NCBI GenBank assembly: GCA_000270325.1 | Contig: BA000048.1 | Location: 515,709-579,708 of the forward strand | From: Candidatus Caldarchaeum subterraneum | GTDB lineage: Archaea; Thermoproteota; Nitrososphaeria_A; Caldarchaeales; Caldarchaeaceae | Direction: 5' to 3' | DNA: 64,000 nucleotides | Part shown: positions 322-45,747 of the stretch, piece by piece | Position numbering within the stretch: the first letter of the stretch is position 1 | How the letters are laid out: each line of letters begins with the position of its first letter | Program-made: the position numbers and the translations under genes | Notes under the pieces: generated by a model | The model's database searches: none | What the model was told of the DNA's origin: nothing | Seen by the model: the letters and a program-made list of their open reading frames with translations, nothing else

Positions 322-693
322 TCACGGACTCGCTTTGCTGGCAACTTCTTTCAGCATCTTTAAAGCCTCCAACAGCATCTCCCGCGTCTCCCTCGAATCA
401 CGTGCAACAACCTCCAGAATCTCCAGACTCCTCTTGCTCTGCTCCGTCAAAACCTCCAAAACCTTCGTAACCCTCTCAACAAAAGCATCCATCCTGCTAA
501 CGAAATCCCTAAACTCCGACCGATAATCCCTAAACTCGCTACGAAAATCTCTGAACTCATTCCGGAAATCATTGAACTCACCTCTGAAATCGCGAAACTC
601 ACCCCTAAAGTCACGGAACTCATTTCTAAAATCTCTGAATTCTCCCCTGTAGTCGCGGAATTCCTCCCAGTATGTGAAGAATATTGCCTGCAT
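322..693 (-). CDS. Heptad-repeat protein (eight imperfect RDFRxEF repeats followed by a predicted helical tail), function unknown
   Basis: ORF table protein ...EFRDYRGEFRDFRNEFRDFRGEFRDFRGEFNDFRNEFRDFRSEFRDYRSEFRDF...; the reading frame stays open upstream to 823. Confidence 0.5.
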   Translation of the reverse strand: MQAIFFTYWEEFRDYRGEFRDFRNEFRDFRGEFRDFRGEFNDFRNEFRDFRSEFRDYRSEFRDFVSRMDAFVERVTKVLEVLTEQSKRSLEILEVVARDSRETREMLLEALKMLKEVASKASP

Positions 694-4447: not shown

Positions 4448-7400
4448 TTATTTCTTTGGTGGTGCTGCTGGGTAGATGCCGAGGCGGCGTCCTCTCCAGC
4501 GGATGTATTCGCTGACGATGACGACTACGACGATGACCAGCAGTATGAGGCCGATGATCAGCGCGAGGAACGTGGCGAGGGTCATGGGTACGCCGAACAG
4601 TATGGTGTAGAGGTCGAGGACGATTGTTGCGCTTCTAACGCCTCTAGCTACGTTGGCTGAGTTGCTGAACTGTTCGTAGGATGCTCTTACTGAGTAGTCT
4701 GCGCCCACGACTTTGGAGAAGACCGCCGAACCGCTGGCGTCTGTGGCCGCTGTGGCTATTGTTGTTCCTCCTCTCACCAGCTCAACAATGGCGCCCTGTA
4801 TCGGCTGTCCTGCAGCGCCCTTGACAATTACGGCGATGTCGTATATGCCTGCCTGTATGGTTGCCGATGTCCGGGAGGCGGTGAACCTTACACGGTCTCC
4901 GCCGATAGTTGTGCCATCCTTGGAAACCTCTATCTGGTATTCGTTGTCGAGCGGTACTTGTCCGATGATGACGACGCCTTGGCTGTCTGTTGAGCCTACT
5001 TGTTGTCCGCCGAACCTTATGGCTGCGCCTGCCACGGGTCTACCGTCGAAGTCGACTACTGTCAGGGTTACGTCGTCTACGGGTATGACTATGCTGCCTC
5101 TGCTCTGTAGGCCTGCCGGCGTGTCTCTTACCGCTGCTCTCGCTGTTGTTCCGTATGGGCTGGTCCATTCGACGGTGAAGTCATAGGTTCTGCCGTCGGG
5201 TACGCGGAGGATTGTGAATATGCTGTCGGGTCTTAGCTGTATGTCCTGTTCTCTGACTAGGTTGGGTGAGACGCTTACTCTAGCGCCTGCCACGGGTCTG
5301 CCCTGTCTGTCGACGACGTTGAAGCTGAGGTCTCTGAGTGCGAGGACGACTGTGCCCTCAACGGTTCCGACGTTGGTTCTGCTGACGTCGAAGGTTCTTC
5401 TGCCGACTTCTTCACCGTTTGCGTCGGGCCAGAGGGCGACGATGTCGTAGGAGCTTCTGGCGAGGCGTTTGGCTTCGAAGATGGCTCCTTGTCCACGTAT
5501 GATGAAGTCGTCGGGCAGTGCTAGGCTGGGTGCGCTGAAGACGTATGCTGGGTCGGCTGGTCTCTGTGCGTCGCCGTAGACGAATCTTATCCTGAGGTCG
5601 AAGATGCGTGTGATGACGTCGAAGCTTCTGCCCCAGCCTGCCGGCGGGCAGCTGGCGAGTGCCTCTAGGACTCCTGCGGTGTAGTTGTATGAGCCATCTC
5701 CTGCATGTCTACAGACATCGGCTCGGAACCATCCGTCTCCCGTTGGCCAGGGTCCTGCTTCGGCTGTGTATGCGAAGCCGAGAGGTATGTCTGGTTTCTG
5801 TGTTTCCTGTGTGGTTTCGTCGTCTCTGCTGTCATATGCTATGGGCCATCTGGCGAAGCTGTTGACTGGCCATGTGGGTTCTCCGTTGGCGCCCTGTCCG
5901 AGGTAGAGGACTCTCTGGATGAAGACTCCTCCGGGCTTTCTAATGGGCATGGGCACTATTCTGCCGTCGGGTCCTGCATAGCTCCATGCGGCTGATTTGC
6001 CTGTCTGTGCGTCGATTATCTGGTAGAAGGCTCCGGGCAGTGGCCTCCCGTTGAAGTCGGTGATTCTGGCCGAGACGTTCTGGAACTCGAACATCTTGAT
6101 GAAGGGTCTGTGTGCTCTGTTGTCTGGGTCGTTGCTCACTACCGTGACCGTTGCGGTGCGTGCGACGCCTTCATATGGTCTGCCGTAGCCCATGTACTGT
6201 ATGCCTAGGTCTACGCCAGGCACCTGTAGCTGGTCGCCGACGTGTAGGTTTACGGGCTGTCCTGTGAGTGGGTCGATGGCTTGGCTGACCCAGTTTCTCC
6301 AGTAGTTGCTGGTTGTTCCTCTGTTGGGGTTGTCTGCGCCTGCTTGTCCTGTGCCGTCGTTGTACCATATGCTTGGTGGCGGTGAGACCTCGTCTATGAC
6401 GAGGGTGCTGCCGCCCCATATGACTGTCGAGGGTGTGTCTCCGCTGGTGACCGTTACGAGTCCAACTGGTTTGCCGGAGATGCATATGTTGACTGTCTTG
6501 TCGCCGACTGTGATGGTTCCCGCTGTTGTTACGGCGTCGATGGGTTTCGGTGCGAATGTTGCGCCAAGAGGTGGCACTATTCTACCTTTGACGATGTATC
6601 CTAGGAGCGGCCCGCAATCGTAGCTGCCGAGCTCGTAGTCGCCTACCTGCCAGAAGACGGGGATGTCGACGTCTGTGGCGTTGAGCTTGATGGCGACGAC
6701 TTTGCTGCCTGGTGTTGGTGTGGCTGTCCATGTCCGTGTCAACGCGTAGCCAGGTATCGGCTGGAACTGTCCTGTTCCTGTTGTTCCTCTGTAGAATGTG
6801 ATGTCGAAGGGCGGGTGTCCGAACAGCATCCACGCGTCTGGGAATTGGGCGGGTATTCTCCAGACCAGTTCATAGTGGTCGCGCTGCCATGCTCCGTTGT
6901 TATATTTTGGCGATGATGGGTCGATGGGTAGCTGGTCGCTCCATACGCTGATGCGGTACTGTATTCTGCTGTTTTCCTGGTTGGTGAGATGCGGGTGGCG
7001 TCGATCGTAGCCGGTCGGGACTGGGTTGTATGGCCATCCGTCAATCATTCTGCCGTCTTCATAGCTTGGGTAGGGTATGTCCCATGAGCGTGTTACATCG
7101 TCGTAGACCCATCTGCCGGCTGAAGAGTCGAATACCAGGTCCCAGTCGCTCTTGGTGAAGCGCTCTGATGTCGGTAGCCATGGGAGTGTGAGCTGGCCTG
7201 TTGTCCACTTGGCTGCTCCACGTGTCTCGGGTACGGCTGTGTATGTCCATGTTCTGCGGGCGTGGTCGACTGTTATCCTGCCTGGGAAGACTGTATTGCC
7301 GTCTGTTACGTTGAGCCACCAGATTCTTGCGTAGAGGTCTTTGACGGGTCGGTCTTTGTTGGCGCTTATGGCGAGGACGAATGTCACATCGGCGATGGCT

Positions 7401-10400
7401 ACTTTGTCAACCGAGTAGCCTCTCTTGGTGAGGTTGAAGGCGTCTTTGTAGACGATGCTGCTGTTGAGGTACCAGTAAACAGTCAACGTGTAGTTAACAA
7501 CGTTTGTCCCGAGGATGTTCTCCATGGCTTCCTGTGTCGGGTAGAGGAGTGTGAGGTTGCCGTCACGTCCTGTCTTGTAGAGAACTGAGGAGGAGCGATC
7601 CACTGTACCGCTATCGTCGTAGTATACGTCGAGCTGTACGACTGCGTATGGTATGGGTCTTGCGAGGTCTTCGTCTTTGAGGTTGAGGGTTATGAAGCCT
7701 ACCGGTATGGGTACTGTTACGACTTCTTTCTCGAACACCAGTGTTGTGGGTCTTGTCGGAACCTCGATGTACCTCTTTCCTTTGAATGGTGTTGATATCT
7801 CTTCGACTGCTCCGGCTGCGACCGCTTGCTCCCATCTCCATCTCTGCTGGTTCCAGAGGCCTTCATTGCCTACGACTGTGAAGTTGTGGGTGGGCCACTT
7901 GCCATTGGCTGTTTCGTTGACCGCTGGGTTGAAGAACTCTCTTATGAGGAAGCTGTCTCCTGGCCTAACGTCTCCTCCTGGGCTGGTTAGCGGTCCCTTC
8001 TGCGTTGTCAGCCATCCGCTGCCTGTTAGCCCTGCTTTGTCGTAGAATCTTGCCCATGGCTGTTCGCCTCTGGTGAACTCGAGCGGGTAGACGTAGCTGT
8101 AGAAGGTGAGGTCTTGTTTGCGGTAGGTGCCGTTCCACCAGATGTTGCTGCTGTGCTGGCTGTCTGCTTTGAGCCAAGTGGTTAGGAGGGTGTCTTCGGT
8201 CCATTTGCTGACGAAGAGCGATGAGAAGACTCCGTCTTCGGGTATGAACATCTCCATGTTGACGCCGTTGTCGTTGACTATGTGGTAGGTGGCGTTGCCT
8301 ATGCGGCGTGCTTCGTTGAGGTAGTCGAAGTCGCCGTCGACGATGCGCTGTTTGAAGGTGTGGGCCCATGTCAGCAGGTCTATCCTGACGGGTCCGCATG
8401 TCTTGTAGAGTGTTGCGTTGCCGATTGGGTTGAGGTTGGGGTCGGTGACGAATTCACCGTTCCATGTCATGTAGACTCTGAGGACGACTCTGTCATTGAC
8501 CTGGCCTGCAGGAGTCTTTCTGATGCTCGGTGGGCTGCTGTGGCTTGTCCAGTCAATCTTGATCTCATAGTCGACGGGCACGGTTCTGCCTGGCCACTTG
8601 CTGTTGCCTGGTGTCTGTTGCGTCTCGGGGTCTCCTGTTGTTACTGTTGTTACTGTTATGTTGTAGAGTGCGCTGGGCATCTTGTAGAAGACGTAGCGGA
8701 CGTCTCCGTAGGTCTTGAGGCCGTTTGACCTGGATATGCCGCCGAAGAAGTGGTCGATTCTGTAGCGGAAGAACTGGCTGAATGCGAGGGTTGTGTTGAA
8801 TTTGTCAGTGTTGGTGTCGCCTGTTGGGTCCATGGTTTCGAGGAAGTATAGGCGGCTGCCTGTTAGCGGGTGTACACCGACCCATGTGAGGGTGATGTTG
8901 AGCCTGGGTATCCTGTTGTCTTGGTTGTAGTCCCATGTTGTGAATATGAAGTCGTTGATGAGGGCTGTGAGTTTGATGGGTGAGTCGATGTTGCTGTCGA
9001 CGGTGAATGTTAGGCTTCCGTCGGGGTTGAGCGGCAGTGTGTCGTCGCCTATTCTAGCGTCTGTGAACTTGACCCATACACCCTTCCACCATACGCCGTC
9101 GATTGTGTATTGTCCTCCTGCTAGGTAGCCGAAGTCGAGGGCGCCTGTGCTGTCGAGCTGTGTTACGTAGGGTGTTGCGGGTGATGGTGGCACTACTTTG
9201 ACGAATGCTTCTCTGGAGAGTGGGCTGTTTTCGCAGTCGACGAAGACGAGCTTGACTTTGTAGATGCGGAGGACGAGGTCCTCCATGATGGTGTGGGTTA
9301 GTTTGTCGACGGTGGCTTCTCCGACGGGTGTGCCGTCGAAGGTGACGGTGACCATGTATGCGAGGTCTTCGGGCAGCTGGTAGAATACTGCCCATCCTTC
9401 GCCGTGCTGGTCATAGCTCCACTGTAGGCTGCCTGTGGATGGGAAGAAGTCGGGTATCAGGCTGGCTCCTGTCTTGGTTATTGGTGGTCCGTTGCCGCGC
9501 TGTAGGGTGATGGCTGTGTTGGCGGCTGGAGCCGGGTTGCCGAGGTTGTCAACAAGCCTATAGGCAAGATCGTGAACATTAGCCGTAATGTAGACGAGAC
9601 CCGCTCTTGCCAACGCTATGTCAGGAGCCTTGTGCGGCGCAAGACTCTGCAGTATTACTACCTGTCTCTTTGTGGCGTTGAGTATCGCGAATGTACCTGA
9701 CTGAGGCTGGCCTGAGAAGAGCATTCCTCCGACGAAATCATTGTAGGTGAACGCTGGATCCAATGTCTGTATGTCTGTGTTGTTTGATGATACAAGTGTC
9801 CTGATTGTCTGTGAACCCGGTGGCCCTGGCCATATCTCGACCTCGGCTGCACCGGTCTCGCCGGTAGTAGTTACGTTGAACCTTCTGATGGATGTGCTGT
9901 CTATTACCCCGTCTGGTCCGATGTCCTGCCAACCTGCGAGAGCGTAGGAAATGTTTCCGACTATCGGCTGGTTGGTGGCTGCGTCATGGTATTTGATGCT
10001 AGCTATAACGCCGCTGAAGGTGAAGGGCGTTCTTATGAAGCCGCCATGTGTTGCGTTTTCAACTATGTCTACTCGTAGGTCTACTCCAGGCGGATAGTTG
10101 ACGAATATGTCGAAGGTGCCTGTTAGCGGGTTGTAGTTCTGCAACCGCATTCCTATGGGGGTGTTTGAGGAGATCATCAGTGTAACCGGTCCACGGATTG
10201 GCCTCGGTGTTCCGAGGGGTCCTCGGCTGAGGGTTACGGTGACCTCGTTGTGTATCTTGATGAGGACTGTGTTGTTTCCTAGAACTACGTTCGGGACTAT
10301 CCATCCGTTGTATGTGGTTGTGTTGGTGGCTGCTATGGCGTAGGGGTTGCGTACTCTTACGCTGTCGACGAGGACTGCGGAGCCGCCGTATCCGTTTCTT

Positions 10401-12238
10401 GCTCCGCCTTTCCACTTGACCTGTATCTCGAAGCCGCCCCACCGCGGGTCATCGCTGAGCTGTCTTGTCTTCATGTAGGTGATTTCGGGAATGAGGGCGC
10501 TCCAGTTCATGCCCGCGTTTATCCATGGTCCCTGCCAGCTTCCGCCCCACGCCTGCTCAAAGTATCCGCCTGGTCTCCATGCTGGAGAGACGTCGTCTGC
10601 TGGGTTGAAGAAGTAGCTGGCGTTGAGGCTTCCTCTGAGGCCCCAGTTGGTTCCGTTGGGGAAACGGGCGAATTTGCTGTACTGGCCTAGGTATCCAGGC
10701 CACTTGTGCGGGTCGTTGGTGCAGCCGTCGCTGCCCGTGGTGTGTATGCTGTGGGCCAGGTAGTAGGGTACATCAGCTGATGTCTTGAAGTTGAGGGTGA
10801 CCTCTGCCCCGACCATCTTATCGCCTATCCATGGATGCTGGATGGCAAGGTCAGCGTCCTGCACACAGAACCGAGCATAAAACACCGTGTTATTCTCAAA
10901 GTTCGCTATCGATGGCCCAACGGTCTCAACATTCGCAGTAGTGTCAGTGCCCTCCCATGTTGGCAGCAAGGGCCTAGGTGGGTCTATATACACTGTCTCG
11001 TTAAGTACGAGGCTGAACGGCCCAGCGGGAACACCTGTGATGCCTCCCTGCGTAATCGTTGGGTTGACCGATGGGTTTGATGGATAGGCTCCGAACAGAG
11101 GCCTTATCTTGCCGGTGGCAGGGTCGGTAGCATACTCGGGAGCATTTGGACCACCTGTTTGGTTGTATTCGTTTCCTACGTAGAAGGTCTGGTTGACGAG
11201 TACGGTCTCCCACCAGACACGCTTGGTGGCGTTGAGATGCGGAGCCTCGATAAAACCGTTGTTATCTTCAGGGTCAGGAATACCTCCTTCGAATGGTTCT
11301 CTGGTGCCGAGGTTGATGCTCTGCAGCGGTATTGGGACGAGGCGGTTCTGTGCAAACTTGCCTGAACCCACACCAGCGGAGCGTGGATAGATTTCACGAG
11401 TGTATCTGCTCTGGCCATCATCTCCGGTTATAGCCGCCTGTATCAGTGATTGTGTGGAGCTGGCGTCTGTGTGGTCGGTGTCGTATATGAATATCGTCGC
11501 ATAAGTCAACACATCATTGGTGGCGTACCATGTGTGTTCGTGGAAGAGCTTGAAGATGTAGGCCGCGCGAGCCAACCAAGCCCTCTGAGGATCGTTGTGG
11601 TTAATCTGGAAAGTTATTGGACCGGATGCATAGTTTACGTTGTCCACGGGCCCTGACCCGAGAGGCGGAAAGATGTTCCAGTTAAATGGACCACCGTGGG
11701 TATCTTCTATGCCGTCATCGTTTATAGTGCTGTTGAAAGCTGAGAACCCGAACTTGCTTAGGAAGCTCGGTGTGGGGTTGACTGTTAGCCAGTAGACTAT
11801 GATTCCTCGGAATGGGTTGCCCTCGCCGATACACTCACCCTGATAGCTCTTCGCCTTCACAATAATGGTAACGTTCTCCCAGCCAGCAGGCCACGAAACC
11901 CTGATGAAACCAGTGCCGTTAGGACTGCCCGCTCTAATCGGACCCTCCCAACTATCCAAAGGCGCAGTACTTGCTCCACTTGGGTTCTTGAACTTATACA
12001 GCTCAACACAGACATTCGTCACATTATACCTATCAGCAAAGCCAACACCAGTCGGCTGCACAGGAGGAGCACCAGCTACATAAGGTGCACCATCCCACGA
12101 AGCCGTCACTATTTTGAGCCATGCGGTGTAGTTCGGCTGCGCAAACGCCGGCGTGACAATCGCTGCTCCAAGGAAAGCCGTCGGAAGCGCTAGCAGCAAA
12201 GCTAGCAAAACTGCCTGACTTTTTCCAATCATCAACAC
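4448..12238 (-). CDS. Giant (2596 aa) secreted, membrane-anchored surface protein; S-layer or adhesin candidate
   Basis: Uninterrupted 7.8 kb ORF; N-terminal signal peptide, dense N-x-S/T sequons, C-terminal repeats of the ...DGRPVAGA... type (carboxypeptidase-regulatory-like), C-terminal TM helix plus basic tail. Confidence 0.8.
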   Translation of the reverse strand: MLMIGKSQAVLLALLLALPTAFLGAAIVTPAFAQPNYTAWLKIVTASWDGAPYVAGAPPVQPTGVGFADRYNVTNVCVELYKFKNPSGASTAPLDSWEGPIRAGSPNGTGFIRVSWPAGWENVTIIVKAKSYQGECIGEGNPFRGIIVYWLTVNPTPSFLSKFGFSAFNSTINDDGIEDTHGGPFNWNIFPPLGSGPVDNVNYASGPITFQINHNDPQRAWLARAAYIFKLFHEHTWYATNDVLTYATIFIYDTDHTDASSTQSLIQAAITGDDGQSRYTREIYPRSAGVGSGKFAQNRLVPIPLQSINLGTREPFEGGIPDPEDNNGFIEAPHLNATKRVWWETVLVNQTFYVGNEYNQTGGPNAPEYATDPATGKIRPLFGAYPSNPSVNPTITQGGITGVPAGPFSLVLNETVYIDPPRPLLPTWEGTDTTANVETVGPSIANFENNTVFYARFCVQDADLAIQHPWIGDKMVGAEVTLNFKTSADVPYYLAHSIHTTGSDGCTNDPHKWPGYLGQYSKFARFPNGTNWGLRGSLNASYFFNPADDVSPAWRPGGYFEQAWGGSWQGPWINAGMNWSALIPEITYMKTRQLSDDPRWGGFEIQVKWKGGARNGYGGSAVLVDSVRVRNPYAIAATNTTTYNGWIVPNVVLGNNTVLIKIHNEVTVTLSRGPLGTPRPIRGPVTLMISSNTPIGMRLQNYNPLTGTFDIFVNYPPGVDLRVDIVENATHGGFIRTPFTFSGVIASIKYHDAATNQPIVGNISYALAGWQDIGPDGVIDSTSIRRFNVTTTGETGAAEVEIWPGPPGSQTIRTLVSSNNTDIQTLDPAFTYNDFVGGMLFSGQPQSGTFAILNATKRQVVILQSLAPHKAPDIALARAGLVYITANVHDLAYRLVDNLGNPAPAANTAITLQRGNGPPITKTGASLIPDFFPSTGSLQWSYDQHGEGWAVFYQLPEDLAYMVTVTFDGTPVGEATVDKLTHTIMEDLVLRIYKVKLVFVDCENSPLSREAFVKVVPPSPATPYVTQLDSTGALDFGYLAGGQYTIDGVWWKGVWVKFTDARIGDDTLPLNPDGSLTFTVDSNIDSPIKLTALINDFIFTTWDYNQDNRIPRLNITLTWVGVHPLTGSRLYFLETMDPTGDTNTDKFNTTLAFSQFFRYRIDHFFGGISRSNGLKTYGDVRYVFYKMPSALYNITVTTVTTGDPETQQTPGNSKWPGRTVPVDYEIKIDWTSHSSPPSIRKTPAGQVNDRVVLRVYMTWNGEFVTDPNLNPIGNATLYKTCGPVRIDLLTWAHTFKQRIVDGDFDYLNEARRIGNATYHIVNDNGVNMEMFIPEDGVFSSLFVSKWTEDTLLTTWLKADSQHSSNIWWNGTYRKQDLTFYSYVYPLEFTRGEQPWARFYDKAGLTGSGWLTTQKGPLTSPGGDVRPGDSFLIREFFNPAVNETANGKWPTHNFTVVGNEGLWNQQRWRWEQAVAAGAVEEISTPFKGKRYIEVPTRPTTLVFEKEVVTVPIPVGFITLNLKDEDLARPIPYAVVQLDVYYDDSGTVDRSSSVLYKTGRDGNLTLLYPTQEAMENILGTNVVNYTLTVYWYLNSSIVYKDAFNLTKRGYSVDKVAIADVTFVLAISANKDRPVKDLYARIWWLNVTDGNTVFPGRITVDHARRTWTYTAVPETRGAAKWTTGQLTLPWLPTSERFTKSDWDLVFDSSAGRWVYDDVTRSWDIPYPSYEDGRMIDGWPYNPVPTGYDRRHPHLTNQENSRIQYRISVWSDQLPIDPSSPKYNNGAWQRDHYELVWRIPAQFPDAWMLFGHPPFDITFYRGTTGTGQFQPIPGYALTRTWTATPTPGSKVVAIKLNATDVDIPVFWQVGDYELGSYDCGPLLGYIVKGRIVPPLGATFAPKPIDAVTTAGTITVGDKTVNICISGKPVGLVTVTSGDTPSTVIWGGSTLVIDEVSPPPSIWYNDGTGQAGADNPNRGTTSNYWRNWVSQAIDPLTGQPVNLHVGDQLQVPGVDLGIQYMGYGRPYEGVARTATVTVVSNDPDNRAHRPFIKMFEFQNVSARITDFNGRPLPGAFYQIIDAQTGKSAAWSYAGPDGRIVPMPIRKPGGVFIQRVLYLGQGANGEPTWPVNSFARWPIAYDSRDDETTQETQKPDIPLGFAYTAEAGPWPTGDGWFRADVCRHAGDGSYNYTAGVLEALASCPPAGWGRSFDVITRIFDLRIRFVYGDAQRPADPAYVFSAPSLALPDDFIIRGQGAIFEAKRLARSSYDIVALWPDANGEEVGRRTFDVSRTNVGTVEGTVVLALRDLSFNVVDRQGRPVAGARVSVSPNLVREQDIQLRPDSIFTILRVPDGRTYDFTVEWTSPYGTTARAAVRDTPAGLQSRGSIVIPVDDVTLTVVDFDGRPVAGAAIRFGGQQVGSTDSQGVVIIGQVPLDNEYQIEVSKDGTTIGGDRVRFTASRTSATIQAGIYDIAVIVKGAAGQPIQGAIVELVRGGTTIATAATDASGSAVFSKVVGADYSVRASYEQFSNSANVARGVRSATIVLDLYTILFGVPMTLATFLALIIGLILLVIVVVVIVSEYIRWRGRRLGIYPAAPPKK

Positions 12239-12255
12239 ACCCAGCCCAACAACCG

Positions 12256-12262
12256 CTATATA
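12256..12262 (-). promoter_or_regulatory. Putative TATA box (TTATATA) about 20-27 nt upstream of the giant gene's first two ATG codons
   Basis: Minus-strand read ggttatatagcgg...ATGCTGATG; spacing suggests a leaderless or short-leader transcript. Confidence 0.35.
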
Positions 12263-12289
12263 ACCCGTAACAGTCTAGAACCCCTCCAA

Positions 12290-12620
12290 AACTCTGGACA
12301 ACAACATCCAAAAAATACAAACAACAACACCCCCGTAATACCAAACCCTTAAAAACAAAACCCCAAAAACAGAAAAAACACCAAAAACCCCCAAAAAGCC
12401 AAAAAACAACACATTCTACAAAACTAGAACACACCAAAACACCCGCCAAAACAAACAACCAACGGCCAAACAACCCCACACAAAAAGGCCACGAAAATAT
12501 TTCCACAACCTGTTGTAAAACACCATAATCCTCTTCGCCAACCCTGCCCCTCATCTCTCCAAAGCCCACCTGAGCCACCGACCTCTCAACCCACTAAAGC
12601 CTATTCAACCACTTCTTCAA
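12290..12620. repeat. Low-complexity, strongly strand-asymmetric tract (A+C-rich, nearly G-free on + strand)
   Basis: Runs such as caaaaaatacaaacaacaacaccccc...aaaacaaaaccccaaaaacagaaaaaacaccaaaaacccccaaaaagccaaaaaac; the minus-strand ORF 12033..12578 over it is a compositional artefact. Confidence 0.6.
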
Positions 12621-13004
12621 GAAACATGAATACGTTCAGACATCTCCCGCCGTAAGACCACCTACAAAGCATAAAACTCTCCAACATCGACGTAGACCGT
12701 AGCCCCCCAATCAAGAGCTCCGTCTCAACAATGTCTCGGCTCTCGGACCACCGTGAACCTTCTTAACTAGCCTTACGGCCTACAAAGGGCTTCAAACAAA
12801 CAAAACCACGCTATCCGATTAGGTTAAGGCACTAGAGCTAAGCCTCTAAACATGACCTAGACATGCACGATGCAATACAATACTCTACAGCACTCTGCTT
12901 AGGCATAGACATAATCTCCTTCGTGTTGATTAACTAAAAAAGCCACTTATCATCTCGACATGAGTTCCTCTTTTTTGTAAGAGTGTTGGCTGGCTAACTC
13001 TGCA

Positions 13005-13457
13005 TCATAGCTCTCCCAATAGGGAAACATCCGTAACCACTTTTCCTTTTTGTCTAAGATCTTTATCGGCTGTGACGAGTTTTTCTCCTAATTTTCTTGA
13101 GAGCCAGAGATATGCTGAATCATATATCGTTAACCCCGATGTCACAGCTATTTCAAGCACTTCACTTGCTTCATTCCAGAGAACCGGGACCATATTTATC
13201 CCGAGAGCGCCTATCGATTTTAGAGCGCTGACTCCGTCCTCGAGAGTCAGCACGCTATTCTTTACTGCTTTTGATATTACGGATGCAAGCTCATAAATTA
13301 TTAGCGTGGGCGCATATGCTTTTACCCGGTCAAGGGCAATTGAATTCTTTAAGACTCTGGCCTCTTCCTCCCAAGGCTCGCCAGGTATAAACCATTTTAC
13401 TGCAACGCTCGCATCGATGACAAGTTTTATCTCTTTTCCCTCTCCTCCCTCAGCCAT
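13005..13457 (-). CDS. vapC: PIN-domain toxin (VapC-like)
   Basis: KLVIDASVAVKWF start with conserved Asp, PIN-like length, overlapping upstream antitoxin gene. Confidence 0.7.
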   Translation of the reverse strand: MAEGGEGKEIKLVIDASVAVKWFIPGEPWEEEARVLKNSIALDRVKAYAPTLIIYELASVISKAVKNSVLTLEDGVSALKSIGALGINMVPVLWNEASEVLEIAVTSGLTIYDSAYLWLSRKLGEKLVTADKDLRQKGKVVTDVSLLGEL

Positions 13458-15408: not shown

Positions 15409-16500
15409 CTACTCAACGGTGGGTATGTCGAGAAGCGTAACCTCGGGTGAGCCGTCGTCGGAGATGCTTGTGAAAACCCTGTCGCTGTGTATGAGTGAGA
15501 GGTAGCTGAAGGTTCGTGAAACAGAGGCCGGTGTTGACCTGTATCCCTCCTCGAGGAGCCGGTATGCGGCGGCGAGGCAGAGAACGTTCAGCTTAACTTT
15601 CCCAAGCGCTCTATGCAGAACACGGTAGGCATCCAGCAGAGCCCGTGACTCGGCCTGCTGCCCCCCAATCCTGAGACCGTGAAACAGCGGAACAAATGCT
15701 GTGAAGAAGGTCTGGTCAACTCTCTCCAAAGGCTTCTCAAACACATCCGACAGCTCGCGGACATTCTTCAGAAACCTCTGCGAAACACTGTAACGAGCCC
15801 GCTTCACCCTCTCGAGAAAACCAACATCCACCAGCCACTCCAGCCGCGGCGGAACAAAGTGCCTATACTTGGCGTAGAGACGGCTCTTAATCCACTCAGC
15901 CTGCGAAGCATACTTCAGCCGCTCCTCCCGAAAACCCGAGGCCTGCTCAAGCTCCCTCTGAACCGATGCACGCCTCCTCTCCGGCATCCTCCTCAACATC
16001 CTCCTAAGAGCCTCGGGATACACCTCCTCCATCACCGCATACATGGCCTCGAGACGGCTGAACTCACGCATCCCAGCCAACCACTTGAGCATCCCAGAGA
16101 AAATGTAGTCTCTGTTCAGCAAGGCGTGGAGAAAGAGCGTCTTCTCAACATCTGTCAACGTCAAAACCTCTGAGAGATTGGCCATCCCCTCACCTGAGAC
16201 ATGCCGCCGCAGAGCCTCCGAAGAATTGAGACAGATATACGCCGCGCCATAGAGGCCTGGCCTTCCCGAAGCCCTGTCATAGAACCCCAGCTGCGCAGCC
16301 AGCTTGACGTAGTTGCGTGCGTTAACCTCGGTCCTGAGCATGCCAGGCATCTCCCCAACATCGTTAACCAAACTCCTGCACGTCTCCAGCAACACCGAGG
16401 CCAAATAGTCAGGTGAACGTGGCGAACCATCCTCGAGGATGCAGGCGATAAGCTTCAGGTAACCTAGTCGACAGACGTCGCCGTGAACCTCCGCTATCAC
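15409..16500 (-). CDS. Hypothetical protein, 363 aa, immediately downstream of and overlapping a methyltransferase gene; candidate restriction/effector partner
   Basis: Long ORF, mostly helical by composition; 4-nt overlap (16497-16500) with the upstream methyltransferase; no recognisable nuclease or ATPase motif. Confidence 0.55.
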   Translation of the reverse strand: MIAEVHGDVCRLGYLKLIACILEDGSPRSPDYLASVLLETCRSLVNDVGEMPGMLRTEVNARNYVKLAAQLGFYDRASGRPGLYGAAYICLNSSEALRRHVSGEGMANLSEVLTLTDVEKTLFLHALLNRDYIFSGMLKWLAGMREFSRLEAMYAVMEEVYPEALRRMLRRMPERRRASVQRELEQASGFREERLKYASQAEWIKSRLYAKYRHFVPPRLEWLVDVGFLERVKRARYSVSQRFLKNVRELSDVFEKPLERVDQTFFTAFVPLFHGLRIGGQQAESRALLDAYRVLHRALGKVKLNVLCLAAAYRLLEEGYRSTPASVSRTFSYLSLIHSDRVFTSISDDGSPEVTLLDIPTVE

Positions 16501-17693
16501 GCTATCCTCACCATCCTCCGTGGCTCACCCTTCGACAAAACAAGAACCTTCTCCCTGTCAACCCCCTGCCAAGACTTGAGATACATCAGATACTTGTGCC
16601 CACGTCTTATGCCGTCGCTTATGATGGCGCGGGCTGTGAAACCGCTTTTCTCAGCAGGCTCGACCAAAAGCTCCGCCAAATCCACCCGACGACCACCCGA
16701 CTTGACATCACCCACAACCAGCACACAGTATCCCCCAGGCTTCAGCATTCTGAAAAACTCATCCAAAACCCTCCCCATAAACTCGACATAACGTTTAACA
16801 GACTGGGTGGCGAAAAGCCGTTTACCGACAACACGGTAATCATGCCCGAGAAACCAGAGCCTCAGCCAGTTATCCCAAGCATAAGTCTGCAGGTTGAGGT
16901 AAGGCGGCGAAGTTACTATGAGGTCGACAGACTCATCCGCTATAGGCAGCGCTGATGCATCCATGTTGAAGGCGGCGCCCCTCGCCTCAGGCAACCCATC
17001 AGCCAAAACAGACTCAGCCTTCCTCAGCAAACAAGCCAAAACATTTCTAACAGGCTTCTTCAACCCATGCTCCGCAACATACCTTCTCATGTAGCGCGGA
17101 GCCATCGAGAAAGAGTGGCTGCATGGAACGCTCAAACTAATCTCGGAAGAACCATGCAGGATACCGAGCATACAGGCCTTCACAAAGTTCGTCACATCGT
17201 CCTCGGAGTCCAGAAGCAGTTCTCTTACGGCCAGTATCTGTTTGAGGGTTTGGGGGTGGTAGAAAGCTCGGACATCTTCGTCGACGTCGTAGACCGAGAC
17301 TGCGTCAGGCCTCATCACTCTCGAAGCCTTCTCAACCCAGCTCCTAACATCTCTGAACATAGCCGGCTTCACCTTCGCACGGGTAACCACATAGGCCTCT
17401 GGAGCAAGGTCGTTTCCCACGCCGACGCGGCCAGTCAAACACGCCTCAAGCGGGGCCGTCCCCTTGCCCGAAAACGGGTCAAGCACAAGGTCGCCGCGCT
17501 CCGAAAACCTCGTTACAACCCAGCGAGCCAACGCCGGCGGAAAAGAGCCCGTCCTCGACATGATGCGGTGAAGCGAGTGACCCCAGCTCCTGCCAAAACC
17601 TTTCCACGAGTCGGAAACCTCGCCGCTGGAAATGTAAGCTATTTCCGTCATCAAAAAACTCGGACCAACCTGCTCCACGCTATAATCATTCAC
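16497..17693 (-). CDS. Amino-methyltransferase (N6-adenine/N4-cytosine DPPY family), motif I before motif IV
   Basis: FPPALARWVVTRFSERGDLVLDPFSGKGTAPLEA (motif X/I) followed about 185 aa later by VDLIVTSPPY (motif IV) and RMLKPGGYCVLVVGD. Confidence 0.7.
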   Translation of the reverse strand: MNDYSVEQVGPSFLMTEIAYISSGEVSDSWKGFGRSWGHSLHRIMSRTGSFPPALARWVVTRFSERGDLVLDPFSGKGTAPLEACLTGRVGVGNDLAPEAYVVTRAKVKPAMFRDVRSWVEKASRVMRPDAVSVYDVDEDVRAFYHPQTLKQILAVRELLLDSEDDVTNFVKACMLGILHGSSEISLSVPCSHSFSMAPRYMRRYVAEHGLKKPVRNVLACLLRKAESVLADGLPEARGAAFNMDASALPIADESVDLIVTSPPYLNLQTYAWDNWLRLWFLGHDYRVVGKRLFATQSVKRYVEFMGRVLDEFFRMLKPGGYCVLVVGDVKSGGRRVDLAELLVEPAEKSGFTARAIISDGIRRGHKYLMYLKSWQGVDREKVLVLSKGEPRRMVRIA

Positions 17694-18481: not shown

Positions 18482-18596
18482 AGCCCGGTCGTCTAGCGGC
18501 CAAACCTGGTCAGAAGAGGGCCATGGATCTCGGGCTCTGGATCACTCCTCTGTGAGGAGAACCCCGAGGACGCCGGTTCGAATCCGGCCCGGGCTA
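18482..18596 (+). tRNA. tRNA-Gln (anticodon CUG) with two 21-nt introns, one in the D-arm and one at the anticodon loop
   Basis: Exons align base-for-base with the intron-less tRNA-Gln(UUG) at 37525-37597 (AGCCCGG-UC-GUCU-AGCGGCCAA...GGAU); anticodon stem TCGGG/CCCGA, loop CUCUGG; T-arm GCCGG-TTCGAAT-CCGGC; discriminator A. Confidence 0.65.
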
Positions 18597-33691: not shown

Positions 33692-34387
33692 CTACTCGAA
33701 AAGAAACTCACCGCGTCTAATGTAGTCAACCGAGCCCTCAGCCTTTATTTTCCCCAGCTCCACGTAATAGACATAGTCGGCAATCTCCAGCACTTGGTCA
33801 ACATACTGGTCAACAATCAAAATACCTATGTCTTTTCCCGTGAGTTTGCGGAGCTCCTCATACACCATGTCAGCCATCGCAGGCGAAAGACCTACCGTGG
33901 GCTCGTCTATCAAAAGGTAGCGCGGCTCATTCATCATCGCTTTAGCAAGCTCGAGAAACTTCTGCTCACCACCGCTCATCTTGCCTGCCTTGGTGTAAAG
34001 CCTCTCCCTTAGACGTGGAAACTGGTTCAAAACAGCTTCAACCCTCTCAGTCACAAGCGCCTTGTTACCCCTAAAGAGCCAAGCAGCCAGCTCCAAGTTC
34101 TCCTTCACAGTCATCGAGCCGAAGATACCGCTCTCCTGCGGAATATAGAAAACACCCATCCTAATTCTTTCATGAGGCGCCGTCGAGGTAATCTTTCTAC
34201 CATCGAGCAGTATCTCCCCGCTTTTGGGTTTCAGAAAACCGAAGAGTGTTTTGAGAAGGGTGCTTTTACCAGCTCCATTTGGGCCGATGACCGCGTAAAC
34301 CTTCCCCTGCTCAACTTGGACACTTACGCCGTCGAGGACAAGTATGTCGCCGATGTATGCGACGGAGAGGTTCTCAGCCCGCAGCAT
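33692..34387 (-). CDS. livF: ABC transporter ATP-binding protein (LivF-like)
   Basis: Walker A GPNGAGKST, signature MSGGEQK, Walker B LLIDEP. Confidence 0.8.
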   Translation of the reverse strand: MLRAENLSVAYIGDILVLDGVSVQVEQGKVYAVIGPNGAGKSTLLKTLFGFLKPKSGEILLDGRKITSTAPHERIRMGVFYIPQESGIFGSMTVKENLELAAWLFRGNKALVTERVEAVLNQFPRLRERLYTKAGKMSGGEQKFLELAKAMMNEPRYLLIDEPTVGLSPAMADMVYEELRKLTGKDIGILIVDQYVDQVLEIADYVYYVELGKIKAEGSVDYIRRGEFLFE

Positions 34388-35132
34388 GCCTCTTCACCCC
34401 AAGATAAAGCCTGACCACTTCCTCATTTCTCAGAACCTCATCAGGCGAACCCTCCAAAAGCTTCGACCCCGCCGCCATAAATACAACCCTTTTACAAAGC
34501 CTCCGAATCTCAGCCATGTCATGGCTCACAACCAAAATCGACAGCCCCTGCGTATTCACCCTCTTCAACGCATCGATGAGTATGCTTTTCAGGACAGGGT
34601 TCACGCCCGCGAAAGGTTCGTCGAGAAGAAGCAGCCGTGGCTTAAGCATCATGGCGCGGGCGAACTCGAGAAGCTTTCTCTCGCCACCGCTCAACTGCGA
34701 GCCCAGCAAATCAGCCTTCACATCCAGCTTCACGAGACGAAGACTATCATACGCAGCTTTGCGCAGCTCCTCCACCGACATTTTCAACCACGAGGCTGAC
34801 GCCACCAAGTTGTCTAAAGCAGTCAGGTTACCGAAAACCCTGGGAATCTGGTAAGTCTTGACTATGCCGGCTCGCGCCAGCTCATACACGTTCTTCTCCA
34901 AAATGTTCTCTCCATAGTAATACACTTTTCCAGAATCCGGCCTAATCAGCCCGCATACCACGTTTATGAAAGTGGTTTTACCTGCTCCGTTGGGGCCTAT
35001 CAGCCCGAGAACCTCGCCCTCATACATTTCAAGCGAAAGACCATCCAAAGCCCTTAACTCATCATATCTCTTAACCACCTCAACAGCCCTCAGCACAGCC
35101 TTCGAGCCAGAAACATCAGGCCCCATCGCCAA
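34374..35132 (-). CDS. livG: ABC transporter ATP-binding protein (LivG-like)
   Basis: Walker A GPNGAGKTT, signature LSGGERK, Walker B LLLDEP. Confidence 0.8.
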   Translation of the reverse strand: MAMGPDVSGSKAVLRAVEVVKRYDELRALDGLSLEMYEGEVLGLIGPNGAGKTTFINVVCGLIRPDSGKVYYYGENILEKNVYELARAGIVKTYQIPRVFGNLTALDNLVASASWLKMSVEELRKAAYDSLRLVKLDVKADLLGSQLSGGERKLLEFARAMMLKPRLLLLDEPFAGVNPVLKSILIDALKRVNTQGLSILVVSHDMAEIRRLCKRVVFMAAGSKLLEGSPDEVLRNEEVVRLYLGVKRHAAG

Positions 35133-44328: not shown

Positions 44329-45414
44329 TTACGGTAGCTGGGAGACGGGCTTGATTCCCAGCTGCTCCAGTATCTTATCTATTTCTTCACCGTTTTCTTC
44401 GCCGATTCGCTGGTCGACGCTGGTGGGTGTTATCTCGTTGATCTCGACCACTTGCTCGGTTGAGGAGAGGCCGGTGAGTATCAGTGAGACCTGCATCGTG
44501 GAGCTGAAGGTGTCGTCTATCCGCGCACCCCATATCACCAGCCCATCTTCACCCATCAGCTCCGAGATAATCTCCGCCGGCCTCGCCGCTTCCGCCAGCT
44601 GCATGTCCTCCCCTCCGCAGACATGGACTATGGCTCCTGAGAGGTTTTCGTAGGATGCGTCCAGTAGCGGGGACTGGAGAGCGTTAAAGGTGGCTTCCTC
44701 TGCTCTGTTGGGTGTGGAGGAGCGGCCTACTCCAAGTGATGCGAGTTTGCCGCGGCTCACTACTGTTTTGAAGTCTTCGTAGTCGATGTTTATCAACCCG
44801 GGTTTTGCGATGGACTCTGTTATGCTCTGTATCATGTTGCTGATGATTTCGTCGGCGAGGCTGAAGGCTCTTCGCAGGTTGTGCTGTGGATAGAGGTCGA
44901 GGAGCTTGTTGTTATCAACTACAACCGATGTGTTGGTGTAGTTTTTCAGCTCCTCGAGTCCCGCTTGTGCAATTCTTTTCCTCACCATGCCCTCGAATTC
45001 GAATGGGAGAGAGACGACGCCGACAACCGTCGCGCCTTCTTCACGTGCTACGCGCGCTACGACCGGTGCTGCTCCTGTTCCCGTTCCTCCTCCAAGACCC
45101 GCGGCGAGGAAGACGATGTCCGCTCCTTCAAGGGCCCTGCGTATCTCCTCCTCAGATTCTTCGGCGGCTTTTCTTCCACGGACTGGGTCGCCTCCTGCTC
45201 CACGGAGCCGGGTCACCGATTTGCCGAGAAGAATTTTCTTGTCGGCTCTAACCATGTCGAGATGCTGCAGGTCCGTGTTCGCGGCTATGGTGTATACGCC
45301 TGTGAGACCGAGGGCGTTGAGCCTGTTGACGGTGTTGCAGCCGGCTCCGCCTACTCCGATTAGCTTGATTCTTATCTCCTCTGTGGTCTGGACAAAGTCT
45401 TCCACGCTACTCAC
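44329..45414 (-). CDS. ftsZ: FtsZ/tubulin-superfamily GTPase (FtsZ-like)
   Basis: IKLIGVGGAGCNTVNRL and tubulin signature GLGGGTGTGAAPVVA. Confidence 0.8.
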   Translation of the reverse strand: MSSVEDFVQTTEEIRIKLIGVGGAGCNTVNRLNALGLTGVYTIAANTDLQHLDMVRADKKILLGKSVTRLRGAGGDPVRGRKAAEESEEEIRRALEGADIVFLAAGLGGGTGTGAAPVVARVAREEGATVVGVVSLPFEFEGMVRKRIAQAGLEELKNYTNTSVVVDNNKLLDLYPQHNLRRAFSLADEIISNMIQSITESIAKPGLINIDYEDFKTVVSRGKLASLGVGRSSTPNRAEEATFNALQSPLLDASYENLSGAIVHVCGGEDMQLAEAARPAEIISELMGEDGLVIWGARIDDTFSSTMQVSLILTGLSSTEQVVEINEITPTSVDQRIGEENGEEIDKILEQLGIKPVSQLP

Positions 45415-45553: not shown

Positions 45554-45747
45554 TTCCCACCCATCACCTCCATTTGCTCCGTGCTGATGACTGAGGTAGT
45601 TATAACTAAAGGTAATACGCACGTATGTATCAACACGCGTTTCTGAAGCCATTTTTGGCCAACTCATATGCAAAAAGTTACAATTTCTAGAAGTTAGAAA
45701 CCATAAAATAATCATTTGATGAGCATGTTGTCGGACGGCGTATCAAC

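Follow-up and report, generated by a model that had tools for sequence, protein, structure and literature searches.

The strand-asymmetric tract upstream of the giant surface-protein gene of Candidatus Caldarchaeum subterraneum is best explained as an extended, multi-operator cis-regulatory promoter region of this gene with an intrinsically bent spacer, a reading held with somewhat better than even confidence. What is unusual about this otherwise ordinary kind of element is its extreme composition. On the strand that encodes the surface protein (the sense strand, which is the minus strand here), adenines occur almost only inside conserved motifs, and the filler between these motifs, with hardly any C either, consists almost only of alternating T-runs and G-runs. 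In what follows, the window is the whole stretch of 64,000 nucleotides that was analysed, and its features are collected in Table 1.

Composition and setting of the tract

The initial annotation had described, between the 3' end of vapC and the surface-gene promoter, a G-depleted top strand made almost entirely of short C-runs and A-runs, and the counts agree with this description. Positions 12290-12620 of the + strand contain 44.7% A, 36.6% C, 6.3% G and 12.4% T, and the core (12290-12500) 54.5% A, 33.2% C, 5.7% G and 6.6% T. The segment 12239-12620, with 82-85% A+C, is the sole one of its kind in the 64 kb. In 330-nt sliding windows, for which the background over the 64 kb has a mean of 0.489 and a standard deviation of 0.077, A+C culminates at 0.824 for the window starting at 12224 (z about 4.3) and exceeds 0.70 solely in the stretch 12065-12776; the lowest G fraction, 0.061, is found at 12298. 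All other intergenic regions of the window have at most 63% A+C. Eighteen A-runs of at least 4 nt and 16 C-runs of at least 3 nt are present on the + strand of 12233-13004, and these are the T-runs and G-runs of the surface-gene sense strand. The described setting was also correct, the PIN/VapC gene and the giant gene bordering the region on the same strand.

The skew sets in at the start codon (12233), changing sign within about 40 nt of it, remains extreme to about 12500 and fades by about 12770. The conserved portion in relatives is 12233-12480 alone. The remainder, 12493-13004, shows a moderate skew, with 57-71% G+T in its sense strand, and carries only small, unremarkable ORFs and no structure signal; no homologue of it was found by blastn in 74 loci. 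It was considered as a leftover of the divergent genes seen in relatives, a possibility rejected when tblastn of the window with four such proteins gave noise only. A T6 run on the sense strand (12936-12941), about 65 nt past the vapC stop, is the likely vapBC terminator.

The giant gene encodes a protein with a signal peptide, a C-terminal transmembrane anchor and CarboxypepD_reg domains, according to its translation and Pfam. Its homologues are all hypothetical proteins of Caldarchaeum, Aigarchaeota or Nitrososphaerota, and it is a putative S-layer-type protein of an aigarchaeon (Caldarchaeum).

The tract had been considered non-coding, with an artefactual ORF over it, and free of CRISPR arrays, and both views hold. 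The 181-aa ORF was rejected as a coding sequence: it has no Pfam match and is not conserved, the ORFs over the tract in relatives having other frames and ends. A strand free of A has no stop codons, so that ORFs of this type are to be expected there, and this one is an artefact of the A-poor strand. No CRISPR array or regular near-identical repeats were found in the tract, TRF reporting only a weak 9/18-nt periodicity over 52 nt and the direct-repeat families D1 and D2 being low-complexity matches. A known or structured RNA was rejected as well: the tract has no Rfam match at the gathering threshold or at E<=10, its fold z-scores of +0.27 (sense), -1.55 (antisense) and -1.24 do not differ from shuffles, and RNAalifold recovers DNA palindromes only, with 0 of 11 predicted pairs covarying. 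A weak Rfam CD-box snoRNA match (E 5.5) lies outside the tract, at 12901-13017. None of these results speaks for the transcribed non-coding RNA that the initial annotation had also raised.

Table 1. Features of the surface-gene upstream region and of the cdrS-like-ftsZ region (positions in the window)
Feature	Position	Strand	Basis or remark
Giant surface-protein gene, 2594 aa	4448-12232	-	ATG at 12232; ORF translation, Pfam
181-aa ORF, artefact	12033-12578	-	No Pfam match; overlaps giant-gene start out of frame
Conserved upstream regulatory module	12233-12480	-	blastn, MAFFT alignment
TATA box TTATATA, within ACGGGTTATATAG (12256-12268)	12257-12263	-	Invariant in 18 Caldarchaeum-clade loci
TCTAGA palindrome (TTCTAGA-type operator half-site pair)	12274-12279		Position kept in orthologous loci
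Proximal palindrome TCCAGAGTTTTGGA, degenerate TTCTA-N5/6-T(A/G)GAA	12285-12298		Clade alignment
Clade-specific conserved island GTATTTTTTGGATG	12305-12318	-	Alignment
Palindromic heptamer GTA(T/A)TAC in GGTATTACG, aCcr1/CdrS-type RHH operator-like box	12334-12342		Positional conservation
TATA-like TTTTTAA element GTTTTTAAGGG (GTTTTTATATGG or GTTTTTAAATTTTTGG in relatives)	12346-12356		Present in 18/18 clade loci
A-free T-run/G-run spacer	12357-12413	-	No T and two G on the + strand over 57 nt
Distal palindrome TTCTAGTTTTGTAGAA, putative operator	12414-12429		Near-invariant in clade
Distal G/T-rich module part, ending in GTGGCC-T5 island (12481-12492)	12430-12492	-	Composition, alignment
Lineage-specific non-coding stretch, module to vapC	12493-13004		No blastn match in any locus
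PIN/VapC gene	13005-13457	-	Pfam
ftsZ	44329-45414	-	Pfam FtsZ
CdrS-like RHH gene, 48 aa	45407-45553	-	NCBIfam, Pfam RHH_1; directly upstream of ftsZ
Second box copy, GTAATAC (+) / GTATTAC (sense)	45612-45618		Abuts TATA-like element of cdrS-like-ftsZ promoter
TTCTAGAAGTTAGAA palindrome, cdrS-like-ftsZ promoter region	45685-45699		

A probable promoter module conserved upstream of orthologous surface-protein genes

Among the possibilities raised at the outset was an upstream regulatory region, together with a comparison of the regions preceding orthologous surface-protein genes. This comparison was carried out and speaks for such a region, the bias in composition as well as several motifs being conserved upstream of the orthologues. 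The module is the sole homologous part of the 766-nt intergenic region (blastn, 74 loci; 70-94% identity, query positions about 525-772). It was aligned with MAFFT over 18 loci of the Caldarchaeum clade, and the wider motif counts rest on 48 non-redundant loci.

The TATA box starts 30-31 nt ahead of the ATG in every one of the 18 loci (31 nt in the window), and other genera present GGTTAAATA or GGTCTTTATA at its position. Such a TATA element, conserved in orthologues at a fixed distance, is as expected of an archaeal TBP/TFB core promoter. Since archaeal TATA elements lie about 26-27 nt from the transcription start, a TATA box 31 nt before the ATG indicates that the surface-gene mRNA is probably leaderless or near-leaderless. 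The TATA-like element at 12346-12356 may serve as a second promoter and, taken with the neighboring box on the + strand, gives box-N7-TTAAAAA.

Three related palindromes accompany the TATA box: TTCTA-N6-TAGAA at the distal site, about 145 bp off, and TCCA-N6-TGGA and TCTAGA abutting the TATA box. The centre of TCTAGA is 13 nt upstream of the TATA start, and the distances from TCTAGA to TATA and from TATA to ATG are fixed among loci. TCTAGA occupies the equivalent site in almost every orthologous locus, in many genera, and most other genera have a canonical TTCTA-N5-TRGAA at the proximal site, -19/-20 from TCTAGA. The distal palindrome is one of just two TTCTA-N5-7-TAGAA matches in the 64 kb, where 0.10 is expected. 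Its centre and that of the GTATTAC box are separated by 83-87 bp in one subclade and by 73-74 bp in another, which differ here by about one helical turn. Neither TTCTAGAA (not significant) nor GTAWTAC (5 matches for 3.15 expected) is enriched across the 64-kb window, so that the evidence for these motifs is their positional conservation.

The compositional bias extends well beyond the window. In loci L003-L006, L008-L010 and L021-L027, sense-strand G+T amounts to 70-90% over the 300 nt that precede the orthologue, and it exceeds 50% in 44 of the 48 non-redundant loci, whether the upstream neighbor is divergent or co-directional. At -300 to -200 it is 81-90% in the window and in L006, and the TGGCC island recurs in the 18-locus alignment. 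A terminator-like match falls inside 12430-12492, in a scan with bacterial sigma-70 and hairpin-terminator models that are not applicable to an archaeon. The polarity of the runs is shared too: positions -330 to -30 of the window hold eight sense-strand T5+ runs and no A5+ run, and nearly all clade relatives show 4-10 T5+ against 0 A5+ (one in L024), with just 2 T5+ in L002 and L035.

The A-free spacer and its predicted curvature

The spacer between the TATA-like element and the distal palindrome contains 0-2 sense-strand adenines in 12 relatives, though its identity to the window is only 59-85% there (55-85% between relatives for the filler in general). Mismatches among relatives are mostly exchanges between G and T, and G+T stays at 85-96% despite a divergence of 15-40%. 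In this A-free filler it is the composition and not the sequence that is conserved, which makes it a clean natural case of this in regulatory DNA. All 14 sense-strand adenines of 12290-12500 fall into six short islands, five of which are conserved motifs. In the alignment, columns with an A consensus are 92% identical and 68% invariant, whereas about 25% of the columns with a G, T or C consensus are invariant. The length of the spacer is constant inside subclades, at 55-59 or 45-46 nt, two classes (from two subclades only) that are about 11 bp apart.

Seven T-runs of 4-6 nt, all of a single polarity, are packed within 56 nt of this spacer, and the A/C tract filler is predicted by modelling to be the most curved DNA of the window. 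Under two wedge models (De Santis and AA-wedge, with provisional wedge parameters), the predicted curvature is 34.6-35.3 degrees per 30 bp around a bend centre at about 12383-12387; it ranks first in the 64 kb with De Santis and at the 99.99th percentile with AA-wedge, the window averaging 7-9 degrees per 30 bp with its 99th percentile at 21-25. In most orthologous loci the counterpart of this region is the most strongly curved segment, with values that reach the 99.5th percentile or more. Curvature exceeds that of dinucleotide shuffles in 9 of 22 loci (z 2-3.5). Much of the predicted curvature simply follows from the T-run-rich composition, because fewer than half of the loci show significant phasing over and above composition. 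The T-runs of the window have a period of 9.0 nt (z 2.9) and not 10.5; a period of 10.5-10.75 is seen in L002, L024 and others (z 3-4), and many loci are non-significant. A strict 10.5-bp phasing was seen only in part.

A box shared with the cdrS-like-ftsZ operon

An exact GTA[AT]TAC occurs 40-110 nt upstream of TCTAGA in 27 of the 48 non-redundant loci, mostly at 55-64 nt, for a mean of 0.31 loci and a maximum of 2 in the shuffle control. The published 9-bp palindromic aCcr1-box reads A(T/G)G(A)TA(G)A(T/G)TACN (PMC9976878; PMC13199686), and GGTATTAC at 12335-12342 agrees with it at every position. A second copy of the box lies in the same window, in the promoter of an operon where a small RHH gene directly precedes ftsZ. 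This arrangement is retained in 8 other contigs, and in Aigarchaeota the cdrS-like-ftsZ promoters have the box exactly in 6 of 9 cases and with one mismatch in the other 3. The best NCBIfam match of the 48-aa RHH protein is CdrS (E 5.3e-9, 36 bits, below the curated cut-off of 100), and it also matches aCcr1_fam (E 2.3e-4, 21 bits, below the curated cut-off of 60). The protein is a candidate trans-factor for the GTATTAC box.

A model of the promoter

In the favored model, the promoter would yield a leaderless mRNA, and the T-run/G-run spacer would form a static bend or a stiff, nucleosome-unfriendly segment. The bend, together with the conserved helical phasing, could bring the factor bound at the distal palindrome beside the proximal palindromes and the TATA box, and the resulting looping would lead to cooperative repression or activation. 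The GTATTAC box would be bound by the CdrS/aCcr-like RHH protein described above, which would couple the expression of the surface-layer gene to the division programme. The strand asymmetry would then be a by-product of the one-polarity T-tracts and of a selection against A, because adenines would create TATA-like or TAGAA-like decoy sites. It can be observed that bending alone does not demand an asymmetry of G over C.

An unlikely variant holds that the keto-only (G/T) composition of one strand is itself selected, combining a bend, a sequence free of decoys and a strand-polar transcription under a CdrS/aCcr-like RHH factor. The sense read-through would be terminated, and an antisense RNA made only of A and C would meet no terminator.

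Alternative explanations

An upstream antisense or divergent transcript is the first rival to consider, and is likewise judged improbable. The tract would specify an A/C-rich, G-poor, unstructured + strand RNA directed away from the surface gene, with a predicted start near 12378. T-runs, as archaeal terminators, would be kept out of the + strand to let this RNA, or a divergent gene's 5' UTR, form. Consistent with this, the first T-run of at least 5 nt on the + strand occurs at 12970-12975 while the sense strand of the tract has 8-10, folding predictions leave the RNA with essentially no structure (-21.7 kcal/mol for 388 nt), and GTAATAC-N7-TTAAAAA on the + strand resembles the GTATTAC-C-TTTAGTTATAA of the cdrS-like-ftsZ promoter. 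In addition, a divergent gene starts at -284 to -338 in 5 relatives. However, these divergent genes belong to different families, that of L006 carries a separate TATA-like element some 30 nt ahead of its ATG, and the + strand of the window has no gene downstream of the tract, vapC and vapB being the next ones, in antisense. Moreover, in other genera the TATA-like element may stand on either side of the box, and the Rfam and covariation results given above speak against this reading as well.

A polar terminator array or insulator, in which the 8-10 oligo-T runs would stop vapBC read-through before it occludes a strong surface-gene promoter, is rated as quite unlikely. Archaeal RNA polymerase terminates at oligo-T, the genes upstream of the giant gene in the window (vapBC) are co-directional, and the excess of sense T5+ over A5+ runs shared with nearly all clade relatives would fit. 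Yet the T-runs and their polarity are kept in five loci (L006, L022, L034, L031 and L021) with a divergent upstream gene, from which no read-through can come, and vapC has its own T6 run. This explanation also leaves the avoidance of A, the G-runs and the fixed spacer length unaccounted for.

Less probable still is a role in chromatin exclusion. Rigid poly(dT:dA) and poly(dG:dC) runs would keep histones or nucleoid proteins off the operators and the TATA box of a very heavily used promoter, the spacer being nucleosome-depleted rather than loop-promoting. Poly(dA:dT) excludes histone-based chromatin in eukaryotes, as also reported for histone-bearing archaea, and dense homopolymer runs whose composition, but not sequence, is conserved are compatible with such a role. 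It would not require the single-strand polarity or the fixed spacer length; it otherwise draws on the same sequence facts as bending, with no feature distinguishing the two.

There is only a slender chance that the tract is functionless low-complexity DNA, either a decayed tandem repeat of the 9-10-nt (T5G4) type or the outcome of a mutation bias that acts locally and on one strand. TRF detects periods of 9 (5.7 copies, 68% matches) and 18 (2.8 copies, 75% matches) at 12355-12408, the families D1 and D2 could be read in the same way, and C->T and A->G deamination of an exposed sense strand would raise G+T. A slipping repeat would not keep a constant spacer length within subclades, though, and the G+T content of the spacer is maintained through its divergence. 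A mutation bias, transcription-coupled or otherwise local, was rejected because the four-fold sites of the adjacent giant gene are skewed oppositely on the same strand (A.35, C.42, G.13, T.11; G+T 23%), with the flip confined to some 40 nt. Skew among genes is patchy and not obviously linked to expression, and the window has no similar intergenic region elsewhere.

Finally, the G-quadruplex-prone element of the initial annotation (or a + strand i-motif) regulating the promoter is highly improbable: the 378 nt ahead of the ATG do contain 14 G-runs of at least 3 nt, but the minus-strand prediction that had been proposed returned 0 canonical and 0 relaxed motifs in the tract (four G3+ runs, loops <=7 or <=12), the G4Hunter peak of 1.44 is unexceptional given the 680 positions elsewhere in the 64 kb that score at least 1.2, the G-runs have not been kept (GGTTTGG stands in the close relatives L004 and L025 where the window has GGGGG, while T-runs and avoidance of A persist), and long-loop quadruplexes are unstable at hot-spring temperatures.

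Significance

Under the preferred reading as a multi-operator promoter, the present data provide a first testable map of a strong Aigarchaeota promoter, with its TATA box, three related palindromes, an RHH-type box and a predicted bent spacer. A brief full-text search turned up no promoter or regulon study on Aigarchaeota, and literature searches yielded nothing specific on Caldarchaeum promoters and transcriptomes or on archaeal promoter curvature. RHH control of the cell cycle has so far been described in Sulfolobales (aCcr1-3) and haloarchaea (CdrS). The box common to the cdrS-like-ftsZ operon and the giant surface gene suggests a regulatory link between them; RHH cell-cycle control may also be at work in the Nitrososphaerota/Aigarchaeota lineage, perhaps with envelope synthesis under its influence. 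If the keto-only variant were true, it would likewise widen the archaeal RHH division regulon, bringing in Aigarchaeota and the surface-layer gene. For genome scanning, strand-asymmetric tracts beside giant surface genes would be read as promoter architecture and not as RNA genes, G4 elements or coding sequence.

Comparison with known systems

Several known elements share part of this organization. Archaeal oligo-T intrinsic terminators recall the T5-T6 runs of the sense strand here; in the tract, however, the runs precede a promoter and are kept in the absence of an upstream co-directional unit. The intrinsically curved A-tract DNA found upstream of strong bacterial promoters also combines several short one-polarity runs with the strong curvature predicted here. 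In contrast to classical phased A-tracts, the period is about 9 nt and not 10-11, and the interposed bases are nearly all G, which results in a keto-only strand that classical curved elements do not show. Furthermore, the host promoter is of the archaeal TBP/TFB type, and the bend is a predicted one. Multi-operator looping promoters, where one dimeric or tetrameric factor is involved, similarly associate distal and proximal related palindromes; here the distances are conserved, with a one-turn difference between subclades, and looping is inferred from geometry only. Other genera have two full palindromes about 85-95 bp apart, unlike the spacing of about 145 bp in the present tract.

Close parallels are also offered by the aCcr1-box and CdrS operators of Sulfolobales (aCcr1-3) and haloarchaea (CdrS). 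[quoted passage not shown] No S-layer gene stands among the published aCcr1 targets covered here. The RHH protein of the window scores below the curated cut-offs of these families, but the heptamer fits the published box and, as in the haloarchaeal cdrS-ftsZ2 operon, the small RHH gene is located directly upstream of ftsZ.

Composition of the tract

On the plus strand, the tract at 12290-12620 contains 44.7% A, 36.6% C, 6.3% G and 12.4% T, and in its core (12290-12500) G and T account for just 5.7% and 6.6%. In 330-nt windows along the 64 kb, A+C culminates here (0.824; mean 0.489, sd 0.077), exceeds 0.70 only around 12065-12776, and G falls to the lowest value of the whole window. The G-depleted, strand-asymmetric tract reported in the initial annotation is thus a real compositional feature, exceptional within the window, where no other intergenic region exceeds 63% A+C. 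From the start codon of the giant surface-protein gene, where it sets in, the skew stays extreme to around 12500 and then fades towards 12770. A milder form of the pattern occurs at 50334-50508 (63% A+C on the plus strand, four T5+ runs on the minus strand) and includes the TATA element GGTTAAATA upstream of a glutamate-synthase-domain gene (49098-50333, minus strand).

Conservation upstream of orthologous genes

The product of the giant gene, 2594 aa long, has a signal peptide, CarboxypepD_reg domains towards the C-terminus and a TM anchor. Its homologues were all found in MAGs of Candidatus Caldarchaeum, Aigarchaeota or Nitrososphaerota and in hot-spring metagenomes, which identifies the window as aigarchaeal. 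The database homologues P0001-P0054 are mostly partial (400-1200 aa); in the fetched loci the match often runs to the contig end, assemblies tending to break within the gene.

Loci with giant-gene orthologues were fetched from genomes (20) and metagenomes (54). In the 300 nt preceding the orthologue, sense-strand G+T reaches 70-90% in the Caldarchaeum clade as well as in two or more further clades and 55-68% in most remaining genera; just three of the 48 non-redundant loci fall under 50%. Nearly every clade locus has 4-10 sense-strand T5+ runs (2 in L002 and L035) and no A5+ run, except for one in L024. The upstream neighbour is divergent in some loci (L006, L022, L034, L031, L021) and co-directional in others (the window, L023, L005); this T-run pattern is kept whatever the neighbour, and the module can therefore be assigned to the giant gene. 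With composition and motifs conserved ahead of orthologous surface-protein genes, the upstream regulatory region initially proposed is upheld, and the tract is very probably a conserved cis-regulatory region.

Within the 766-nt intergenic region, homologues are detectable only for the proximal ~250 nt (12233-12480). The ~510 nt from the module to vapC (12493-13004) are lineage-specific, with a homologue in none of the 74 related loci, no significant ORF, no RNA-structure signal and no detected remnant of the relatives' upstream genes. A 24-aa ORF at 12838-12912 (minus strand) has GGAG ahead of its ATG, and the T6 run at 12936-12941 probably terminates vapBC.

Coiled-coil-repeat genes with a LLREDEEFRYAVAG-type N-terminus, possibly DUF3782-like, are frequent upstream neighbours of the giant gene in relatives, often divergent (L006, L022, L035, L052, L071, L019, L001); in the window the vapBC pair occupies their place. 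A small protein made of tandem (E/D)FRDFR-type repeats and a helical tail is encoded at 322-693 (minus strand), and its homologue in L003 lies immediately upstream of the giant gene (about -800 to -400). Directly after the giant gene, the segment 3255-4447 (minus strand) presents T6 runs, a TTTTTTATAA element and then a protein of 352 aa that combines a signal peptide and a C-terminal TM with a Thr-rich stalk; this protein may be a surface partner expressed from a promoter of its own.

Promoter anatomy

Features of the promoter and of the related ftsZ region (promoter elements in sense, i.e. minus-strand, reading; window coordinates)
Feature	Position	Remarks
Distal palindrome TTCTAGTTTTGTAGAA	12414-12429	near-invariant within clade
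A-free T-run/G-run spacer	12357-12413	composition conserved, sequence not
TATA-like GTTTTTAAGGG	12346-12356	present in all 18 clade loci
GGTATTACG box	12334-12342	exact in 27/48 loci
GTATTTTTTGGATG	12305-12318	clade-specific
Degenerate palindrome TCCAGAGTTTTGGA	12285-12298	clade alignment; other genera carry canonical form
TCTAGA	12274-12279	in nearly all loci
ACGGGTTATATAG with TATA	TATA 12257-12263	invariant, 18 loci
ATG of giant gene	12232	
Giant gene	4448-12232 (-)	
PIN/VapC gene	13005-13457 (-)	VapB gene upstream
ftsZ	44329-45414 (-)	
RHH gene, 48 aa	45407-45553 (-)	immediately upstream of ftsZ
GTAATAC	45612-45618	intergenic, ahead of RHH gene
TTCTA-N5-7-TAGAA	45685-45699	intergenic, ahead of RHH gene
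Toprim-domain gene	45748-46116 (+)	divergent

The distances from box to TCTAGA, from TCTAGA to TATA and from TATA to ATG are all fixed. In 16/16 clade loci measured, the TATA begins 31 nt ahead of the ATG. From the distance established between archaeal TATA boxes and transcription starts, the giant-gene transcript of the clade is predicted to be leaderless. In other genera the leader is instead 50-70 nt long and includes a Shine-Dalgarno sequence, GAGGTGA. The exact GTA[AT]TAC box lies 40-110 nt upstream of TCTAGA (mostly 55-64 nt) in its 27 loci, as compared with a mean of 0.31 and a maximum of 2 for the same placement in shuffled sequences. The palindrome TTCTA-N5-7-TRGAA is found in 39/48 loci; most genera have it at -19/-20, and it also occurs at -103 to -154. 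The centre of the distal palindrome is 83-87 bp or 73-74 bp from that of the box, and these two classes of spacer length differ by about one helical turn.

An A-free spacer with a predicted bend

Across the clade alignment, consensus-A columns show 92% identity and are 68% invariant, versus 21-27% invariant for consensus C, G and T columns. The 14 sense-strand A within 12290-12500 all fall inside six short islands, namely five conserved motifs and the non-conserved AAATATTTT (12492-12504); the conserved TCTAGA and TATA, both below 12290, are outside this count. The 55-nt spacer contains no A in the window, L006, L034, L023, L031 and L029, and at most two in six further relatives. These spacers are just 59-85% identical to that of the window, with mainly G<->T mismatches; composition, especially A-avoidance, has thus been maintained during sequence drift.

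The spacer T-runs recur at 8-10-nt intervals (best period 9.0, z 2.9 against dinucleotide shuffles). In several relatives the period is 10.5-10.75 (z 3-4), and in others it is not significant. Under both dinucleotide wedge models used, AA-wedge and De Santis, the segment 12366-12406 is predicted to bend by 34.6-35.3 degrees per 30 bp, ranking first or at the 99.99th percentile within the 64 kb. At most orthologous loci the equivalent region likewise harbours the segment of strongest predicted curvature in the 4-13-kb locus, or one in at least the 99.5th percentile. Shuffling its dinucleotides leaves the segment of the window strongly curved (22-26 degrees), and the predicted curvature therefore stems largely from T-run-rich composition. 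In the models, phasing sharpens the predicted curvature in about half of the lineages: real base order adds to it in 9/22 loci (z 2-3.5) and contributes nothing in the remaining ones.

The promoter of a putative S-layer-type gene that this tract marks is extended, multi-operator and probably leaderless, with an A-free spacer predicted to be bent. Such an element is of an ordinary kind; its interest lies in the extreme one-strand composition.

Alternative explanations

Exclusion of histones by the tract is compatible with the same facts as this promoter reading. An antisense or divergent A/C-rich transcript may also start near 12378 on the plus strand, which reads GTAATAC-N7-TTAAAAA, in the order of the cdrS-like-ftsZ promoter, and is free of oligo-T terminators until 12970; the window, however, offers no plus-strand gene to be served, and the divergent genes of relatives belong to different families. 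The idea of an insulator, with the T-runs as a polar terminator array, is weakened by their retention even where the upstream gene is divergent.

A regional replication- or transcription-linked mutation bias can be rejected, because sense-strand four-fold degenerate sites of the adjacent giant gene (A.35, C.42, G.13, T.11, i.e. 23% G+T) are skewed opposite to the tract, the sign reversing some 40 nt or less from the start codon. If an exposed sense strand were deaminated, G+T enrichment would be expected in this gene body too. Window-wide, four-fold-site sense-strand G+T is patchy among genes of the same strand, from 19% to 74% (compare 15409-17693 and 33692-35132 with 4448-12238 and 56706-57743, all minus strand); among the genes of the window no explanatory link with strand or obvious expression class was seen, and horizontal acquisition or inversions may be reflected.

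The tract is non-coding, as first proposed: the 181-aa ORF over it, without family match or conservation in relatives, is an artefact since an A-free strand has no possible stop codons. A known or structured RNA is rejected, with no Rfam match in the tract, fold energies like those of shuffles, and RNAalifold recovering only the DNA palindromes, with no covariation. Elsewhere in the window, ARAGORN reports a 94-nt tRNA-Ser(GGA) at 18503-18596 (plus strand), absent from the Rfam gathering-threshold scan, which may have an intron or a long variable arm. The suggested G-quadruplex finds no backing in prediction (even with loops of up to 12 there is no motif, the G4Hunter scores do not stand out, and the G-runs are not conserved), and the just weak 9/18-nt periodicity dismisses a tandem repeat and agrees with the earlier exclusion of a CRISPR array.

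A box shared with the ftsZ promoter

The sole other TTCTA-N5-7-TAGAA match in the window, together with a further GTAATAC, precedes the RHH gene. Among NCBIfam models, haloarchaeal CdrS fits the RHH protein best (E 5.3e-9) and aCcr1_fam matches it as well (E 2.3e-4), both scoring below the curated cut-offs. The synteny of the Toprim gene with RHH-ftsZ is retained in 8 other Aigarchaeota contigs (L075-L082). In these cdrS-like-ftsZ promoters, a GTATTAC placed 55-68 nt ahead of the RHH start codon adjoins a TATA-like element; 6/9 loci have it exactly and 3/9 with one mismatch, in surroundings that are otherwise unconserved. The box thus keeps its position at two promoters, and the cdrS-like RHH protein would be the obvious candidate factor for it. 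We favour, with moderate confidence, a mechanism in which bending or looping would act together with RHH control. The box is of interest because, in Aigarchaeota, envelope genes may be linked to division genes through a CdrS/aCcr-type factor.

The published aCcr1-box is a 9-bp palindrome, A(T/G)G(A)TA(G)A(T/G)TACN, which resembles the CdrS motif, and cdrS-ftsZ2 synteny is conserved (PMC9976878; PMC13199686). GGTATTAC in the surface-gene region fits this box. Its placement is unlike that of the Sulfolobales aCcr1-box, the box of the surface gene lying 71 nt upstream of the main TATA.
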